Of a stretch of 13,131 nt of DNA, positions 2,414 to 13,131 are shown in pieces. Each line of letters begins with the position of its first letter. Position 1 is the first letter of the stretch. This stretch comes from a virus (lineage: Duplodnaviria > Heunggongvirae > Uroviricota > Caudoviricetes), in IMG/VR virus record IMGVR_UViG_2778261446_000002, positions 1 to 13,131 of that record; one strand, written 5' to 3'. The position numbers and the translations under genes were made by a program. The notes beneath the pieces were generated by a model. It was not told the origin of the DNA. It saw only the letters and a list, made by a program, of their open reading frames with translations, and ran no database searches.

Positions 2414-2892
2414 TGGTCGCCTCCTTTGCGAAGCTGGTCGGCGAACAAACGTACACTAGACGCTTCACTGCGTAGAAACTTAACGGCATAATCAAAACCA
2501 CCTCGTTCTGCGTCGTCTGCTCCGTTGTCGAGGTTATCTGCGTACATCTCTACCCCCTGCGCCCGTACTTCAGCCAGGAAAGCATCGGTAGATGGGGTGT
2601 TAAGTGAAAAGTCCTGTCGGCCTGATTTCAGATACGCAATGGCGATCTTTGTTGCTGCGCATTCGACAGCGAATTTCTCTTTTTCAGCAGCCATCTTCGC
2701 GCACTTGGCCTCAAGGTTATCAATCGTGATTCCAGCAGAACGACACTCCCGCAACGCCGTTTCCAGTTTTGATTCAAGTTCACCGAACTTACGCACCAGA
2801 TATTCAGCGTTTGTTTCGTTAACCTTTAAATCACTTGGGATGCATTTACCTTTCAGAAATCCATCCATCTCAATTAGTGACATTTGTTTCAT
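2410..2892 (-). CDS. Hypothetical Ea22-like coiled-coil protein (about 160 aa)
   Basis: ATG at 2892 ([12 protein letters not shown]...) overlaps the stop of the upstream 54-aa ORF (ATGA). The ORF-track start at 2910 is a GTG 18 nt further up. Confidence 0.55.
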
Positions 2893-3053
2893 TTCTTCCC
2901 ACTCCGCCACATTGCATTCAGATATTTGTTGTCATTAACAGAACCGAAACTATTTCTCTTAAGCAATTCCTCTCTCGATGGCATTGGCTTTACGCGTTGG
3001 CGAATAATCATTTCTGCCGGAAGAATGCCGGGATTGTATGCAAGTCCTCTCAT
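2889..3053 (-). CDS. Hypothetical small protein (54 aa), translationally coupled on both sides
   Basis: ATG at 3053 overlaps the stop of the upstream gene (ATGA) and its own TGA overlaps the ATG of the downstream gene (ATGA). Product [54 protein letters not shown]. Confidence 0.45.
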
Positions 3054-3340
3054 GATTTACTCTCCACGAACTGGTCAACGGCCATGCTAAGTGACACACC
3101 TAAAGTATCGATATGCTGCTGAATATCCTGTAGCGTCCGCGCTTGAGATAACAGAATTTCACGGTTGCATAACTCTTTAACCAGATGCTCAAACTTGCTG
3201 TAATAACCGATACGGCTTAGTGTTTCTTTCCCTGCATTCTCACCTTCTTTGATAATTCCTCTTTCGCTAAGAATCAGGTCGTGTTTGGTTCCGGTAATAA
3301 CGTATTTGCCGAGGTCGATGTTTAGCTTCATTGTTTTCAT
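3050..3340 (-). CDS. Hypothetical phage protein (96 aa)
   Basis: ATG at 3340 ([14 protein letters not shown]...) preceded by GAGG. An alternative ATG at 3358 overlaps the upstream stop. The longer ORF-track version has no RBS. Confidence 0.5.
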
Positions 3341-6410: not shown

Positions 6411-6737
6411 TCAAATAAGTGGTTTGCTGCCTAATTTCATTTTCTGGCGACCAACACAAGTCACACCCATTTCACTGCGTGGCTTGCTGTACCATGTGCG
6501 CTGATTCTTGCGCTCAATACGTTGCAGGTTGCTTTCAATCTGTTCGTGGTATTCAGCCAGCACCGTAAGGTCTATCGGATTCAGTGCGCTTTCTACTCGT
6601 GATTTCGGTTTGCGATTCAGCGAGAGAATAGGGCGGTTAACTGGTTTTGCGCTTACCCCAACCAACAGGGGATTTGCTGCTTTCCATTGAGCCTGTTTCT
6701 CTGCGCGACGTTCGCGGCGGCGTGTTTGTGCATCCAT
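6411..6737 (-). CDS. N: Antitermination protein N (lambda-type, 108 aa)
   Basis: Product MDAQTRRRERRAEKQAQWKAANPLLVGVSAKPVNRPILSLNRKPKSRVESALNPIDLTVLAEYH... is near-identical to lambda N, with SD CAGGAGAATCCAG-ATG as in lambda. The 30-codon upstream extension in the ORF track is rejected. Confidence 0.9.
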   Translation of the reverse strand: MDAQTRRRERRAEKQAQWKAANPLLVGVSAKPVNRPILSLNRKPKSRVESALNPIDLTVLAEYHEQIESNLQRIERKNQRTWYSKPRSEMGVTCVGRQKMKLGSKPLI

Positions 6738-8067: not shown

Positions 8068-8099
8068 CGCTCTTACACATCCCAGCCCTGAAAAAGGGC
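8068..8099 (+). promoter_or_regulatory. nutR (boxA CGCTCTTAC, boxB GCCCTGAAAAAGGGC)
   Basis: CGCTCTTACACATCCCAGCCCTGAAAAAGGGC, essentially lambda nutR. Confidence 0.85.
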
Positions 8100-9507: not shown

Positions 9508-9615
9508 ATGAAATCAAAAATCAAATCGCTACTGGTCGCTGGTTATAACCACGGCTGGTTAAGTATTTCGTTTGTCGATTTCTGGTTTAAAAATCTCAAT
9601 CTGAGGGAATCATGA
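9508..9615 (+). CDS. Candidate small hydrophobic ORF (35 aa) coupled to the primase-helicase
   Basis: ATG at 9508 with a short-spaced SD AGGTGA; TGA overlaps the ATG of the next gene (ATGA). Product MKSKIKSLLVAGYNHGWLSISFVDFWFKNLNLRES. Confidence 0.3.
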   Translation: MKSKIKSLLVAGYNHGWLSISFVDFWFKNLNLRES

Positions 9616-11492
9616 CGCCAAGTGAACTTAGCGACCTGCTTTGGGCGCAGGTTGACAGGGTGGCTCCGCACCTGTTGCCAAACGGCAAGAAAGAGGGGCA
9701 TGAGTGGGTTGCCGGTAACGTCAACGGTGACAAGGGAAACAGCCTTAAGGTCAACCTTAGCGGCAAGAAAAAATGGGCTGATTTCGCTGAGGGAGACGGC
9801 GGTGACATGCTTGATTTGTGGATGGCATGTCGTGGAATTAACCTGCATCAGGCTATGCAGGAAGCGAAAGCCTTTCTCGGAATCAAGGATGACGATCACC
9901 ATTTCGATGCCAAACGTGAGAAGAAATTCTCCAGACCTGACCGCAAGAAAATCGCCCGCTACGTTACCAGAACAGAATCCCATCTTGAGTACCTGCAATC
10001 GCGTGGCATATCGCCAGAAGTCGTAAAGCGCTACGAGGTTGTCAGCGGCAAGGTGTGGAAGGGAGAACGAGAACTTGATGCACTGGTGCTTCCGTACAAA
10101 CGCGATGGTGAGTTGTTGCAGGTCAAGCGAATCAGCACTGAGCGCCCGGACGGGAAGAAAGTCATTATGGCAGAAGGTGATTGCGAACCTTGTCTGTTCG
10201 GATGGCAGGCTCTGGACGCTGGCGTGAGGGCGGTTGTGCTTTGCGAAGGCGAAATTGATTGTATGAGCTATGCGCAATACGGCATCTCGGCGTTATCCGT
10301 GCCGTTTGGTGGAGGGAAAGGCGCTAAGCAACAGTGGATTGAGTTTGAGTACCACAACCTCGACAGGTTTGAGGAAATATTCATCTCGATGGACGTTGAT
10401 GATGTTGGTCGTGAAGCCGCAAGGGAAATCGCAAGCCGACTCGGTGAACATCGTTGCCGTCTTGTTACTCTGCCGTACAAAGACATCAACGAATGCCTGA
10501 TGAACGGTGTTACCGAGGATGAAATCTGGCAGTACATCGGCACGGCATCCTACTTCGATCCTGAAGAACTCTACAGTGCGCGAGAGTTTTACCAGGACAC
10601 TATCAACGCTTTCTACGGCAAGCAGCAGTATCTGTTTAATCCACCGTGGGAATCTCTGGCAGATAAATTCCAGTTCCGTGAGGCAGAGTTGACGCTGGTC
10701 AATGGTGTGAACGGTCACGGAAAAACGGAGGTTGTCGGGCATATGGCACTTGAGGCAATGCGTCAGGGTGTGAAGACGTGCATCGCGTCACTTGAGCTGA
10801 AGCCTGGTATTCTCCTTAAGCGCCTTACCCGTCAGGCGACGTGCTGCAAGATGCCGCCAGTGCTGGAAATTGACTCTGCATTTAAATTTTATGACGAAAG
10901 ACTTTGGGTGTTTGGTCTGACCGGAACGGCGAAAGCCGACAGGCTGATCGAAATATTCGACTACGCTCGCCGCCGATACGGGATCCAGTTATTCATCATC
11001 GACAGCCTGATGAAATGTGGCATAGGCGACGATGACTATAACGGGCAGAAGGCGTTTGTTGACTCGATTTGCGACTTCAAAAACAAAACAAACTCCCACG
11101 TCATTCTCGTTACTCACTCGCGAAAAGGAGACAGCGAAGAAAAACCAACCGGGAAAATGGACGTAAAAGGCTCTGGAGCGATAACAGACCTGACAGACAA
11201 CCTTTTCATCATCTGGCGTAACAAGGCTCGCGAGAGAGCGTTACAGAGAGTTCAGAGTGGTGAAAAGATGTCAGAGAAGGACGAACAGCTACTGGCATCT
11301 CCGGCATCTGTTTTGATGCTTGAAAAACAACGTAACGGCGAAGGTTGGGAAGGTGGTGTCCCGTTGTTCCTTGACGAGCAATCGCACCAGTTCCTGCAAC
11401 TTGAATCAGGATCGCCATATAGCTACATCGCCAATATGCCGAAATCGGAATATGACGAGGCGTGGCGACAGGAAAACGTGACGGAGTATTAA
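9612..11492 (+). CDS. Bifunctional DNA primase/helicase (Toprim domain plus DnaB/RecA-like P-loop helicase, 626 aa)
   Basis: Toprim signatures (VVLCEGEIDCMSYAQ; ISMDVDDVGREAA), Walker A (NGVNGHGKTE) and Walker B (IQLFIIDSLMK). SD GAGGG 5 nt upstream. It occupies the position of lambda P. Confidence 0.75.
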   Translation: MTPSELSDLLWAQVDRVAPHLLPNGKKEGHEWVAGNVNGDKGNSLKVNLSGKKKWADFAEGDGGDMLDLWMACRGINLHQAMQEAKAFLGIKDDDHHFDAKREKKFSRPDRKKIARYVTRTESHLEYLQSRGISPEVVKRYEVVSGKVWKGERELDALVLPYKRDGELLQVKRISTERPDGKKVIMAEGDCEPCLFGWQALDAGVRAVVLCEGEIDCMSYAQYGISALSVPFGGGKGAKQQWIEFEYHNLDRFEEIFISMDVDDVGREAAREIASRLGEHRCRLVTLPYKDINECLMNGVTEDEIWQYIGTASYFDPEELYSAREFYQDTINAFYGKQQYLFNPPWESLADKFQFREAELTLVNGVNGHGKTEVVGHMALEAMRQGVKTCIASLELKPGILLKRLTRQATCCKMPPVLEIDSAFKFYDERLWVFGLTGTAKADRLIEIFDYARRRYGIQLFIIDSLMKCGIGDDDYNGQKAFVDSICDFKNKTNSHVILVTHSRKGDSEEKPTGKMDVKGSGAITDLTDNLFIIWRNKARERALQRVQSGEKMSEKDEQLLASPASVLMLEKQRNGEGWEGGVPLFLDEQSHQFLQLESGSPYSYIANMPKSEYDEAWRQENVTEY

Positions 11493-11521
11493 ATGACCAT
11501 CTACATCACTGAGCTAATAAC

Positions 11522-11553
11522 AGGCCTGCTGGTAATCGCAGGCCTTTTTATTT
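11522..11553 (+). terminator. Rho-independent terminator after the replication genes (tR2-like position)
   Basis: AGGCCTGC-TGGTAATC-GCAGGCCT hairpin (8 bp) followed by TTTTTATTTGG. Confidence 0.7.
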
Positions 11554-11568
11554 GGGGGAGAGTAAATC

Positions 11569-11775
11569 GTGGCTGAGTTTATGCTCGTCGCATTCAAATG
11601 CGTTGGCGTTGGATGGATTCTTCTGACGTTTTTTATTGTTCTGCATAGCTACATTCGTCTTGTGAATGACGGTAAAGACCCATGGTATACGTTGTTTGGC
11701 GCTGCATTTGTCTGGGTGATTATCGGTGTTATGCCTGTCGCTGTAGCAAAAATGGCGTGGCGTTTTGTGAGTTGA
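11569..11775 (+). CDS. Small membrane protein with two predicted transmembrane helices (68 aa)
   Basis: GTG start at 11569 with SD GGGGGAGAG 8 nt upstream. Two hydrophobic stretches (LVAFKCVGVGWILLTFFIVL; LFGAAFVWVIIGVMPVAVA). Confidence 0.55.
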   Translation: MAEFMLVAFKCVGVGWILLTFFIVLHSYIRLVNDGKDPWYTLFGAAFVWVIIGVMPVAVAKMAWRFVS

Positions 11776-11792
11776 ACTGAGGGTAAGTATCG

Positions 11793-12149
11793 ATGGACGA
11801 ATCAAGAAAGCAGTTTGAGGAATACGTTGCCAAAAAATTGAGATTACCATTCGAGATGATAACCGAGGCAAGAAATGGTGATAGGTACTTCGCATTTTCA
11901 AGCATGGATATTCGTCACTCCTTAAATGAGTGGTGGACTTTATGGCAGGCATCGCGAGCAGCTATTGAACTGGATATCGACTGGCCAGAATCGAATGACG
12001 ACTTTTGGAAAGATGGTGAAGAAGGTGCTTATGCGATGGGTTATGAGGATGGGCGTGACAAAACGGTAATTGCAGTAATGAAAGCTATCAGAGCCGCTGG
12101 AATTAAAGAGAAGAATTTCGATGAAGCAAACAATATTCCTCCGAACTAA
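11793..12149 (+). CDS. Hypothetical acidic phage protein (118 aa)
   Basis: ATG at 11793 with SD GAGGG; the 3' end overlaps the ninB start by 29 nt. Confidence 0.6.
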   Translation: MDESRKQFEEYVAKKLRLPFEMITEARNGDRYFAFSSMDIRHSLNEWWTLWQASRAAIELDIDWPESNDDFWKDGEEGAYAMGYEDGRDKTVIAVMKAIRAAGIKEKNFDEANNIPPN

Positions 12150-12531
12150 GCAACAACAGCAAGCCGCAATCAACGCCATCCTCGCAACACCACTCGATAA
12201 AGACAAGCCAGTCACCATCCGCATTACTGACTACAAGCGCAACCTTGACCAGAACGCAAAATTTCACGCGATGCTGGCGGATATCGCACGTCAGGTTCAA
12301 TGGTGCGATAAGTGGTTAAAACCAGAACAATGGAAGGTTTTGTTGATTAGCGGTCATGCAGTGGCAACAAAGCAGGAAGCTGATGTTTTACCCGGCCTTG
12401 AAGGCGAATACGTCAACATTCGCGAAAGCAGCGCGCAGATGAGCGTGAAGCGTATGGCAAGTCTTATCGAGTACACAACAGCATGGGCTATTGGTCAGGG
12501 TGTCAGATTTACCGACAGGAGGTACGAATGA
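12121..12531 (+). CDS. ninB: NinB-like recombination protein (136 aa)
   Basis: Start MKQ..., the [20 protein letters not shown] motif and overall length parallel lambda NinB as I recall it. Confidence 0.7.
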
Positions 12532-12704
12532 GGCGACAGCGACGAAGTTTCACCGACATCATCTGCGAAAACTGCAAATACCTTCCAACGAAACGCTCCA
12601 GAAATAAACGCAAGCCAATCCCAAAAGAATCTGACGTAAAAACCTTCAATTACACAGCTCACCTGTGGGATATCCGGTGGCTAAGATATCGTGCGAGGAA
12701 ATGA
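12528..12704 (+). CDS. ninE: NinE-like protein (58 aa)
   Basis: ATG at 12528 overlaps the ninB stop (ATGA) with SD GGAGG. Product [58 protein letters not shown] matches my recollection of the NinE family. Confidence 0.55.
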
Positions 12705-12972
12705 CAATGGATTATTCACAGTTAAGTGATTTTGAAATTAACAGAATGGTAGGAGACATAATTTTTAAAGGCCTTTGGGCAAGTAAACCGGAAACATCAG
12801 GGAATAACACCAACAAATGGTATTACGGAAATGCTGATACAACTTTTGAGCCATTAAATCATTTGCCTGACTACTGCAATGATCCGAGCGCTTCATGGCC
12901 GATTATTGAGAAATACAGGATTTCTATCTTAGACCAGTTAACTGAATGGTGTGTGGATGCAAAAGGCGTAAG
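12701..12972 (+). pseudogene. nin-region gene of unknown function, interrupted by the IS10-type insertion after codon 90
   Basis: ATG at 12701 overlaps the ninE stop (ATGA). The reading frame runs into the IS terminus at 12973, so the last 15 residues of the 117-aa ORF-track product are IS-encoded. Confidence 0.55.
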
Positions 12973-13131
12973 CCTGAGAGATCCCCTCATAATTTCCCCA
13001 AAGCGTAACCATGTGTGAATAAATTTTGAGCTAGTAGGGTTGCAGCCACGAGTAAGTCTTCCCTTGTTATTGTGTAGCCAGAATGCCGCAAAACTTCCAT
13101 GCCTAAGCGAACTGTTGAGAGTACGTTTCGA
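12973..13131 (-). mobile_element. IS10-type (IS4 family) insertion sequence, inside-end terminus (partial; continues beyond the window)
   Basis: Terminus CTGAGAGATCCCCTCATAATTTCC carries the GATC Dam site of the IS10 inside end and resembles the IS10 outside end CTGATGAATCCCC. The minus strand encodes a transposase C-terminus (see next feature). Confidence 0.7.
12986..13131 (-). CDS. IS10-type transposase, C-terminal fragment (5' partial, runs off the window)
   Basis: Minus-strand frame reads ...[47 protein letters not shown], matching my recollection of the Tn10/IS10 transposase C-terminus. The frame is open to the window edge. Confidence 0.65.

Follow-up and report, generated by a model that had tools for sequence, protein, structure and literature searches.

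A predicted 68-residue membrane protein gene and a probable PF26207 gene between tR2 and ninB of a lambdoid Escherichia coli prophage: probable delayed-early nin cargo

The interval at positions 11493-12149 of the window (the whole stretch of DNA analyzed here, 13,131 nucleotides of the IMG/VR record IMGVR_UViG_2778261446_000002) is, judging from its sequence, the leftmost part of the nin region in a lambdoid Escherichia coli prophage, opened by the near-universal ninA/tR2 junction. The two genes located in this interval, orf68 and orf118, probably represent ordinary lambdoid nin cargo, that is, ninA/tR2 is followed by two independent, N-dependent delayed-early accessory genes that precede ninB. 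This arrangement is already known in kind, being routine lambdoid mosaic cargo within the usual nin organization; nin regions are pools of small, non-essential and tightly packed genes (PMC5630979; PMC8022706). Both tR2 and ninA are textbook lambda elements, and the products of orf68 and orf118 are identical to proteins that have already been catalogued.

The window is the early region of a lambdoid prophage, and the E. coli strains S163-2 and TUM9754 both carry an identical chromosomal copy of the interval. The gene order annotated around the S163-2 copy is kil, N, cI (LexA-type), cro, cII, O and the toprim primase-helicase, followed by two hypothetical proteins, NinB, NinE, NinX and NinF, and then by a Roi-like gene, RusA, NinH and Q; in the window, NinE and NinX likewise come after NinB. 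A search for paralogues inside the window found none, and an Rfam search of positions 11300-12300 gave chance matches only. The relevant features of the window are the following:

8068-8099, plus strand: nutR-like site 3' of cro, with boxA CGCTCTTA at 8068-8075 and boxB GCCCTGAAAAAGGGC at 8085-8099
9612-11492, plus strand: primase-helicase, 626 aa, with Toprim_2, AAA_25 and DnaB_C matches; the last replication gene
11493-11576, plus strand: ninA, a hydrophobic ORF of 27 codons that runs through the tR2 hairpin; stop codon TGA at 11574-11576
11522-11553, plus strand: tR2 intrinsic terminator at the boundary of the replication and nin modules, a hairpin and T-run assigned by identity to lambda
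11554-11562, plus strand: Shine-Dalgarno-like GGGGGAGAG, 6 nt 5' of the orf68 GTG
11569-11775, plus strand: orf68, GTG start, encoding a predicted 68-aa inner-membrane helical hairpin; phrog_1165
11793-12149, plus strand: orf118, encoding an acidic soluble protein of 118 aa; PF26207 (Phage_phiTE_015), phrog_343
12121-12531, plus strand: ninB, a lambda Orf-type recombination mediator (Pfam NinB, E=4.2e-54), the right-hand anchor of the variable slot

The terminator is, on sequence grounds, lambda tR2, and its role in terminating transcription here is predicted accordingly. The hairpin consists of an 8-bp stem (11522-11545; 6 G-C pairs) with an 8-nt loop, and is followed by TTTTATTT up to position 11553. 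The energy of the RNA fold, -16.8 kcal/mol, is unremarkable compared to shuffled sequences (z-score -1.5), and the hairpin is considered non-random because this stretch is nearly identical to lambda ninA/tR2 and not because of this score. Between positions 11493 and 11562, the window differs from lambda ninA/tR2 (40570-40640) by a single mismatch, with the hairpin and the U-run included in the match, and in an alignment with lambda, HK620 and H-19B the only deviation within the same stretch is a single base in lambda. In the HK620 record, the hairpin at the matching place is annotated as tR2 and the short ORF as ninA; in HK630, the exact 27-aa peptide is named NinA, and the peptide matches phrog_5907 (E=1.3e-18). 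The location of tR2, between the last gene of the replication module and the first nin gene, is shared with lambda, where ninB comes directly after the ninA/tR2 block and where the GGGGGAGAG bases that here precede the GTG of orf68 stand before ninB.

The TAA stop of the primase-helicase abuts the ATG of ninA, and the ninA stop overlaps codons 2-3 of orf68 (GTGGCTGA); in lambda, the ninA stop forms an ATGA with ninB. The ninA frame is open through the hairpin in all 144 loci that carry the hairpin. Across these loci, eight different upstream sequences lead into the ATGA start of ninA, which either provides the stop codon of the preceding replication gene, whatever its type, or adjoins it. Counted by codon position, ninA shows 11 synonymous and 21 non-synonymous variant types, a comparison to which indels add noise. 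The ninA/tR2 junction and the nin region of lambda are treated in Kroger and Hobom 1982 and in Cheng, Court and Friedman 1995, as these are cited in PMC8022706 and PMC4824070. At its maximum, lambda tR2 stops about 90% of transcripts, initiation at the NinA start site is active ("not weak"), and translation from this site reduces termination at tR2 by only about 10% (PMC4824070).

A preliminary description of this DNA, made from the sequence alone, correctly located the terminator, the 68-aa membrane protein and the acidic 118-aa protein, and all these features are confirmed in the sequence; within this anatomy, only the account of the short ORF calls for correction. This ORF had been given 26 codons (11493-11573) and considered probably not coding, whereas it has 27 codons and, with the stop included, spans 11493-11576. 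Given that it is a named gene, open through the hairpin in each of the loci compared, and that the start of its lambda counterpart is reported to be active, the non-coding reading appears doubtful, and ninA is best regarded as at least a translated linker.

The N gene annotated in the S163-2 prophage corresponds to approximately positions 6411-6737 of the window, on the minus strand. The boxA and boxB sequences at 8068-8099, which we take to match those of lambda nutR, mark the rightward operon as putatively N-antiterminated. A scan with the sigma-70 consensus found no promoter-like site with 9 or more matches out of 12 in positions 11300-11850, where the single 8/12 site lies inside orf68, and none from the helicase to ninB; nor was a terminator found 3' of orf68 or orf118. 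Starts and stops abut or overlap along the helicase-ninA-orf68 and orf118-ninB-ninE series, with a gap of 17 nt between orf68 and orf118: the 3' end of orf118 overlaps the ninB start by 29 nt, and the ninB stop overlaps the ninE start as ATGA. Tight gene packing of the ATGA type is found in all lambdoid nin regions (PMC8022706).

Because orf68 and orf118 have neither a promoter nor a terminator of their own, lie downstream of nutR and N, are joined to their neighbors by overlapping starts and stops, and are separable from each other in other phages (see below), this anatomy implies that they should be N-dependent delayed-early nin genes that are silent in the repressed prophage. In this scheme, N-modified RNA polymerase initiating at pR would read through tR2, such that orf68 and orf118 are transcribed after infection or induction, and translation would be chained from the helicase stop to the ninA start, from the ninA stop to the GTG of orf68, from orf118 to ninB, and from ninB to ninE. 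A weak or non-canonical promoter for the two genes may be conceivable, the scan being limited to the sigma-70 consensus, and the residual read-through of about 10% at tR2 could yield low expression of orf68 and orf118 whenever pR fires.

The composition of the slot between tR2 and ninB was compared across phages in three sets of loci. In 80 IMG/VR loci chosen via orf68, the order is always ninA/tR2, orf68, zero to two orf118-family genes and ninB, and the module upstream of this block in IMG/VR loci is a DnaB-type helicase, a primase-helicase, or lambda P together with ren. Among 80 loci chosen via orf118, orf68 is absent in 36, a few of which have too little upstream flank; in those with adequate flank, other small genes occupy the space. 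A less biased sample, anchored on the exact tR2 sequence, comprised 100 usable loci with 56 distinct tR2-to-ninB intervals, and the first gene after tR2 in these intervals is distributed as follows:

orf68: 24 of 56 intervals
another predicted membrane protein (phrog_5903, 108 aa; DUF4752-like, 90-101 aa): 12 of 56 intervals
ninB directly: 7-9 of 56 intervals
other small genes: the remainder

Altogether, a predicted membrane protein is the first gene after tR2 in 36 of the 56 distinct intervals, small membrane proteins thus being frequent in this slot. Both orf68 and orf118 are present in 19 intervals, orf68 only in 5, orf118 only in 11 and neither in 21; in some intervals, further two-helix ORFs (60-77 aa) or a second orf118-family gene are found as well. 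No function is assigned to any of the alternative occupants. The treatment of the two genes as a pair in the preliminary description is not supported by these data: in HK620, orf68 occurs without orf118, unannotated and taking up exactly the 207 bp that separate ninA from ninB, and orf118 is found in many phages that lack orf68. Of 78 orf118-selected loci, 66 show an overlap of 4 to 47 nt between the last PF26207 gene and the start of ninB; among the distinct tR2-to-ninB intervals, other genes lie between orf118 and ninB in about 11 of 30. In Hafnia and Cronobacter prophages as well, PF26207 genes belong to the series of small genes that precedes NinB: the gene adjoins NinB in one Hafnia locus and lies 189 nt upstream of it in the other, and in Cronobacter it is one gene away. 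In a third PF26207 locus no Pfam-recognized NinB is found behind the family member. Among 5426 complete E. coli genomes, 2025 carry part of the block. Two database entries in which ninA appears fused to orf68 (93 aa, P0132) or to orf118 (116 aa, P0053) were given no weight because the reading frames probably happen to coincide.

The product of orf68 is strongly hydrophobic (GRAVY +1.20) with two hydrophobic stretches, and its AlphaFold2 model is a helical hairpin (helices 2-33 and 38-67, mean pLDDT 91) with the four-residue turn DGKD; hydropathy and modeling thus agree with the two-helix topology proposed in the preliminary description. Both termini probably lie on the cytoplasmic side, which leaves only about 4-6 residues for the periplasmic loop; this orientation follows from the positive-inside rule only, as applied to K61 and R65 in the tail. 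The protein matches phrog_1165 over the full length (E=5.2e-39; residues 1-68 on profile positions 1-68). Its named homologs come from Escherichia and Salmonella, those of full length have nearly all exactly 68 aa, and this length is kept down to about 50% identity. The family consists of two subtypes that are about 50-60% identical, with dN/dS between them of about 0.38; both occupy the tR2-ninB slot, and the protein encoded here belongs to the less common MAEFMLVA subtype as opposed to the MVELIFSALR subtype. Across 54 sequences, 13 columns are invariant, nine of which (I52, G53, P56, A60, K61, M62, A63, W64 and F66) are located where helix 2 ends and in the C-terminal tail. A scan of contigs for orf68 yielded 3 loci, two of these in metagenome-assembled genomes labeled Cellvibrionaceae and Bacillota, which may be due to contamination.

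By contrast with the membrane protein, orf118 encodes an acidic soluble protein (pI 4.67; 24 D+E vs 16 K+R), which is, by sequence comparison, a member of phrog_343 and probably a full-length member of PF26207. The match to phrog_343 is highly significant (E=5.6e-31); the assignment to PF26207 comes from precomputed matches on the 98%-identical homolog P0001 and on all 120 listed homologs, the local copy of Pfam giving no match for orf118 itself. The phiTE_015 family name is also used in PGAP annotation, in which orf118 is started at an internal Met, giving 81 aa instead of 118 aa. Searching 1.84 billion representative proteins with a profile retrieved 910 clusters at E<=0.001, in a phage-only family with lengths of about 50-160 aa among the matches listed; no known Pfam domains were found in 49 sampled members. 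In alignments, orf118 carries the family motifs, namely the N-terminal SRxxFE-W, WQASRAAIE, and the C-terminal AIRAAGIKVK (AIRAAGIK-x-K), and the enterobacterial subfamily of PF26207 to which it belongs has an additional acidic, aromatic-rich insert, DWPESNDDFWKDGEEGAYAMGYEDG, with the pattern DWPE(S/A)NDD...GEEGAYAMG. Between the SRxxFE and WQASR motifs lies a variable segment of 20-45 residues, which, among 54 representatives that share the orf118 C-domain (median C-domain identity 80%), falls into 31 mutually unalignable clusters (<50% identity). The AlphaFold2 model is of moderate confidence (pLDDT 72.7), good for residues 1-60 and below 50 in the acidic insert.

Neither homology nor structure comparison points to a characterized function for these proteins. 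Searches of orf68, orf118 and ninA against Pfam, NCBIfam and PADLOC returned sub-threshold noise only, namely T4SS_pilin (E=0.027) and an antiporter subunit G (E=0.019); sequence searches of the PDB with orf68 and orf118 gave no match, and no informative fold match was obtained for either protein. The homology searches proposed earlier thus lead to phrog_1165 for orf68 and phrog_343 for orf118, neither of which is a functionally annotated family. The exact orf68 sequence is found on at least 579 public contigs and the exact orf118 sequence on at least 991, under the name "hypothetical protein" throughout, and in the literature on the family names, on nin-region membrane proteins and on the relevant phages we did not find a functional study of either protein.

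Under the reading of orf68 and orf118 as ordinary nin cargo, both proteins would be dispensable accessory factors acting in lytic development, a speculative assignment that can be given some detail. The tiny periplasmic loop and the invariant residues proximal to the cytoplasm suggest that orf68 might act within the membrane or at its inner, cytoplasmic face, and its target there might be an inner-membrane component conserved in Escherichia and Salmonella. The product of orf118 could be a small binding or adaptor protein, with the specificity for its partner conceivably set by the variable segment.

Several other interpretations have to be weighed against this one. The preliminary description considered orf68 and orf118 to be a superinfection-exclusion or abortive-infection module, that is, a moron expressed from the prophage and shielding the lysogen. 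Insertion between tR2 and ninB, which are neighbors in lambda, and the recurrence of small membrane proteins in a highly mosaic slot are compatible with this proposal, but the two genes have no promoter or terminator of their own, are coupled to ninA and ninB by codon overlaps, lie directly behind a terminator of about 90% efficiency in the repressor-controlled pR operon, give no PADLOC match and occur independently of each other, so that a role in the lysogen is very unlikely. Exclusion would be easier to reconcile with a function in the lytic phase than with lysogenic conversion, and we retain the general idea of exclusion or defense because unrelated small membrane proteins recur in the slot, a pattern that is expected of conflict genes. 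In this form, orf68 would be a lytic-phase protein that blocks the entry of DNA from secondary phages or takes over the host by inhibiting an inner-membrane protein, and we assign this reading a modest chance of being correct. The delayed-early position, the two-helix hairpin, the presence of non-homologous membrane proteins in the same slot and the restriction to Escherichia and Salmonella, as expected of a host-specific target, all agree with it, and the invariance of the helix 2 end and C-terminal tail across subtypes of about 50% identity suggests a conserved partner. DicB, which is not a membrane protein itself but acts on the inner-membrane proteins ManYZ, offers an analogy, and the inhibition of receptor proteins in the inner membrane by small prophage proteins has a precedent (PMC6832061). 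Searches, however, gave no homology of orf68 to known exclusion proteins, and the predicted loop of 4-6 residues would be too short to touch the incoming phage machinery directly.

For orf118, a function as a counter-defense protein or decoy, with the hypervariable N-terminal segment tracking a diversifying immune target of the host, has a rather small chance of being correct. The 31 non-alignable variants of the segment on a conserved C-domain, the acidic aromatic-rich loop, the location in the early operon, the large phage-only family and the occurrence, within a single slot, of as many as two paralogues that differ in this segment are what one would expect of such a protein; at the same time, the searches run gave no similarity to known anti-defense proteins, intragenic mosaicism is common in lambdoid phages and may simply reflect recombination at conserved motifs, and the AlphaFold2 model is only moderate, particularly over the acidic loop. 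It is decidedly unlikely that orf118 instead assists the recombination mediator NinB (Orf) and is translated together with it. The frequent overlap with the ninB start, seen in this prophage as well, and the location of related genes just before NinB in Hafnia and Cronobacter fit this possibility, but lambda, P22 and HK620 carry NinB without a PF26207 gene, intervening genes are common, one locus lacks a Pfam-recognized NinB altogether, and shared module boundaries can account for the adjacency. That either ORF, or both, should be no gene but an accidental open frame within conserved junction DNA is hardly conceivable, even though the two are absent from the original annotation of H-19B and HK620 and PGAP starts orf118 at an internal Met: orf68 retains its length of 68 aa at 50% identity and shows a dN/dS below 1, and the family of orf118, with 910 clusters, has conserved motifs at both the N- and the C-terminal end. 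The Shine-Dalgarno sequences of both genes and the confident (orf68) or moderate (orf118) AlphaFold2 models add to these conservation data, which effectively refute this reading.

A broader and rather unlikely possibility is that the tR2-ninB slot as a whole is a hotspot in which interchangeable inner-membrane proteins (orf68, phrog_5903, DUF4752 and unnamed hairpins of 60-63 aa) and hypervariable PF26207 proteins are lytic conflict genes that would serve the exclusion of secondary phages or counter-defense. Expression of such genes would be under double control, exerted at tR2 by N antitermination and at the translated ninA linker by the passing-on of ribosomes.

Regardless of function, several annotations can be improved: the terminator can be named tR2 and the short ORF ninA, orf118 encodes 118 aa and not the 81 aa given by PGAP, and the slot is not that of ren. 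In E. coli and Salmonella prophages, Shiga-toxin prophages among them, the small membrane proteins encoded between tR2 and ninB form a compact set that is very common. The residual interest of the interval is that this slot is enriched in small membrane proteins and in hypervariable PF26207 proteins, and the slot proteins are cheaply testable for effects on exclusion, toxicity and the lysis-lysogeny decision.

Comparison with known systems places the two genes among nin cargo in more specific terms. The preliminary description had located them at the ren position while noting that neither protein resembles lambda Ren; the latter observation holds (for orf118, BLASTP E=9.2; for orf68, no alignment), and the idea that Ren could be a distant relative of PF26207, raised by a faint resemblance of the C-termini, was rejected at an hhalign probability of 0.2%. 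The position is nevertheless a different one, because both genes lie downstream of tR2, unlike ren, which directly follows P, and because in H-19B, in O26/O103 EHEC prophages and in IMG/VR loci ren is found upstream of tR2 alongside the very same orf68/orf118 block. The likeness to Ren is thus confined to the rough map place between the replication genes and ninB. The genes resemble a moron in being inserted between genes that adjoin in relatives, as tR2 and ninB do in lambda and in 7-9 of the 56 intervals, but differ from one in that, within the reach of the sigma-70 consensus scan, no promoter of their own is seen and no terminator follows, orf118 overlapping ninB. No match of either protein to known anti-phage defense, superinfection-exclusion or abortive-infection systems was obtained with PADLOC, PHROG, Pfam and NCBIfam. 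We would therefore tentatively regard orf68 and orf118 as neither a substitute for Ren, nor an obligate two-gene system, nor a classical moron.

T4 Imm and the class II (pin)holins such as S21-68 are small two-helix phage membrane proteins. The prediction for orf68, two transmembrane helices in a protein of about 70 aa, matches the class II holins, but these are encoded in the late lysis cassette beside the endolysin, whereas orf68 belongs to the early nin region, and the S163-2 prophage has a lysis cassette with a lambda-family holin about 5 kb downstream of orf68; moreover, a long charged C-terminal tail is absent from orf68. T4 Imm, a small early membrane protein, is the analog to be invoked for orf68 in an exclusion role, with size, topology and the presumed early lytic timing of orf68 being alike, a likeness confined to these general features. 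The junction of lambda shares with the interval described here the ninA-tR2 sequence except for one base, the place before ninB, the Shine-Dalgarno sequence and the style of start/stop overlap. It differs in the upstream module, P and ren in lambda as opposed to a primase-helicase and no ren here, and in that lambda tR2 is followed directly by ninB, whereas in this prophage 0.55 kb with two extra genes are interposed.

The gene for the acidic 118-aa protein (orf118, family PF26207/phrog_343) has been called by PGAP in an identical prophage (L004, 14425-14670) as an 81-aa product that starts at the internal Met38 and lacks the N-terminal MDESRKQFE motif, which is conserved throughout the family. 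The 118-aa form (window 11793-12149) is the better model. In orf118 (residues ~11-47, window ~11823-11933) and its homologues (P0001-P0120), the stretch that separates the SRxxFE motif from the WQASR motif is hypervariable, with 31 unalignable variants combined with a conserved C-domain. Two family members with differing variable segments are present together in some prophages.

The adjacent gene for the two-helix membrane protein (orf68) is unannotated in the original GenBank record of HK620 (L003), where it lies at 2077-2283 and accounts for precisely the 207-bp 'gap' that separates ninA, the short hydrophobic ORF that runs through the terminator tR2, from ninB. In the original record of H-19B (L001, AF034975, 3001-3757), orf68, orf118, and ninB are all unannotated. 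The slot between tR2 and ninB is occupied in other phages (L099, L113, L169, L171, L232, L245) by unrelated small membrane proteins and, in addition, by DUF7301 and phrog_7185 proteins; the occupants found in other phages are the following:

phrog_5903 protein, 108 aa, one transmembrane helix
DUF4752 membrane protein, 90 aa
phrog_31901 membrane protein, 66 aa
two two-helix ORFs, 63 and 60 aa, without a PHROG match
DUF7301 proteins, basic
phrog_7185 protein, 65 aa

In four database proteins, namely P0132, P0133, and P0138 from Salmonella (93-94 aa) and P0053 (116 aa), the ninA frame continues without a stop into orf68 or an orf118-family gene. These fused frames probably reflect a chance coincidence of frames; if ninA is translated in these proteins, a third hydrophobic helix would be gained. 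In metagenome-assembled genomes that carry the labels Cellvibrionaceae and Bacillota, short contigs (L006, L007) also contain homologues of orf68 with 52-54% identity; these contigs may represent enterobacterial prophage DNA introduced through binning contamination.

Two further features of the window are:

8068-8099, nutR-like site directly 3' of cro, boxA CGCTCTTA, boxB GCCCTGAAAAAGGGC
12665-13018, NinX reading frame, broken by an ISVsa5-like element

The former is of the lambda type. The final ~160 bases of the window (~12960-13131) match the terminus of an element of the IS4 family, which bears the annotation ISVsa5 (IS10-like), and this end sequence has 4896 matching sites across 1028 E. 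coli genomes. The element breaks the NinX frame, so that ninX contains an IS insertion in this copy of the prophage. The primase-helicase gene upstream of ninA is intact in the window (626 aa), whereas in vB_EcoP-720R6 (L002, 1194-3093) it is annotated as two CDSs (1194-2822 and 2869-3093), which suggests a frameshift or a sequencing error relative to the window copy.
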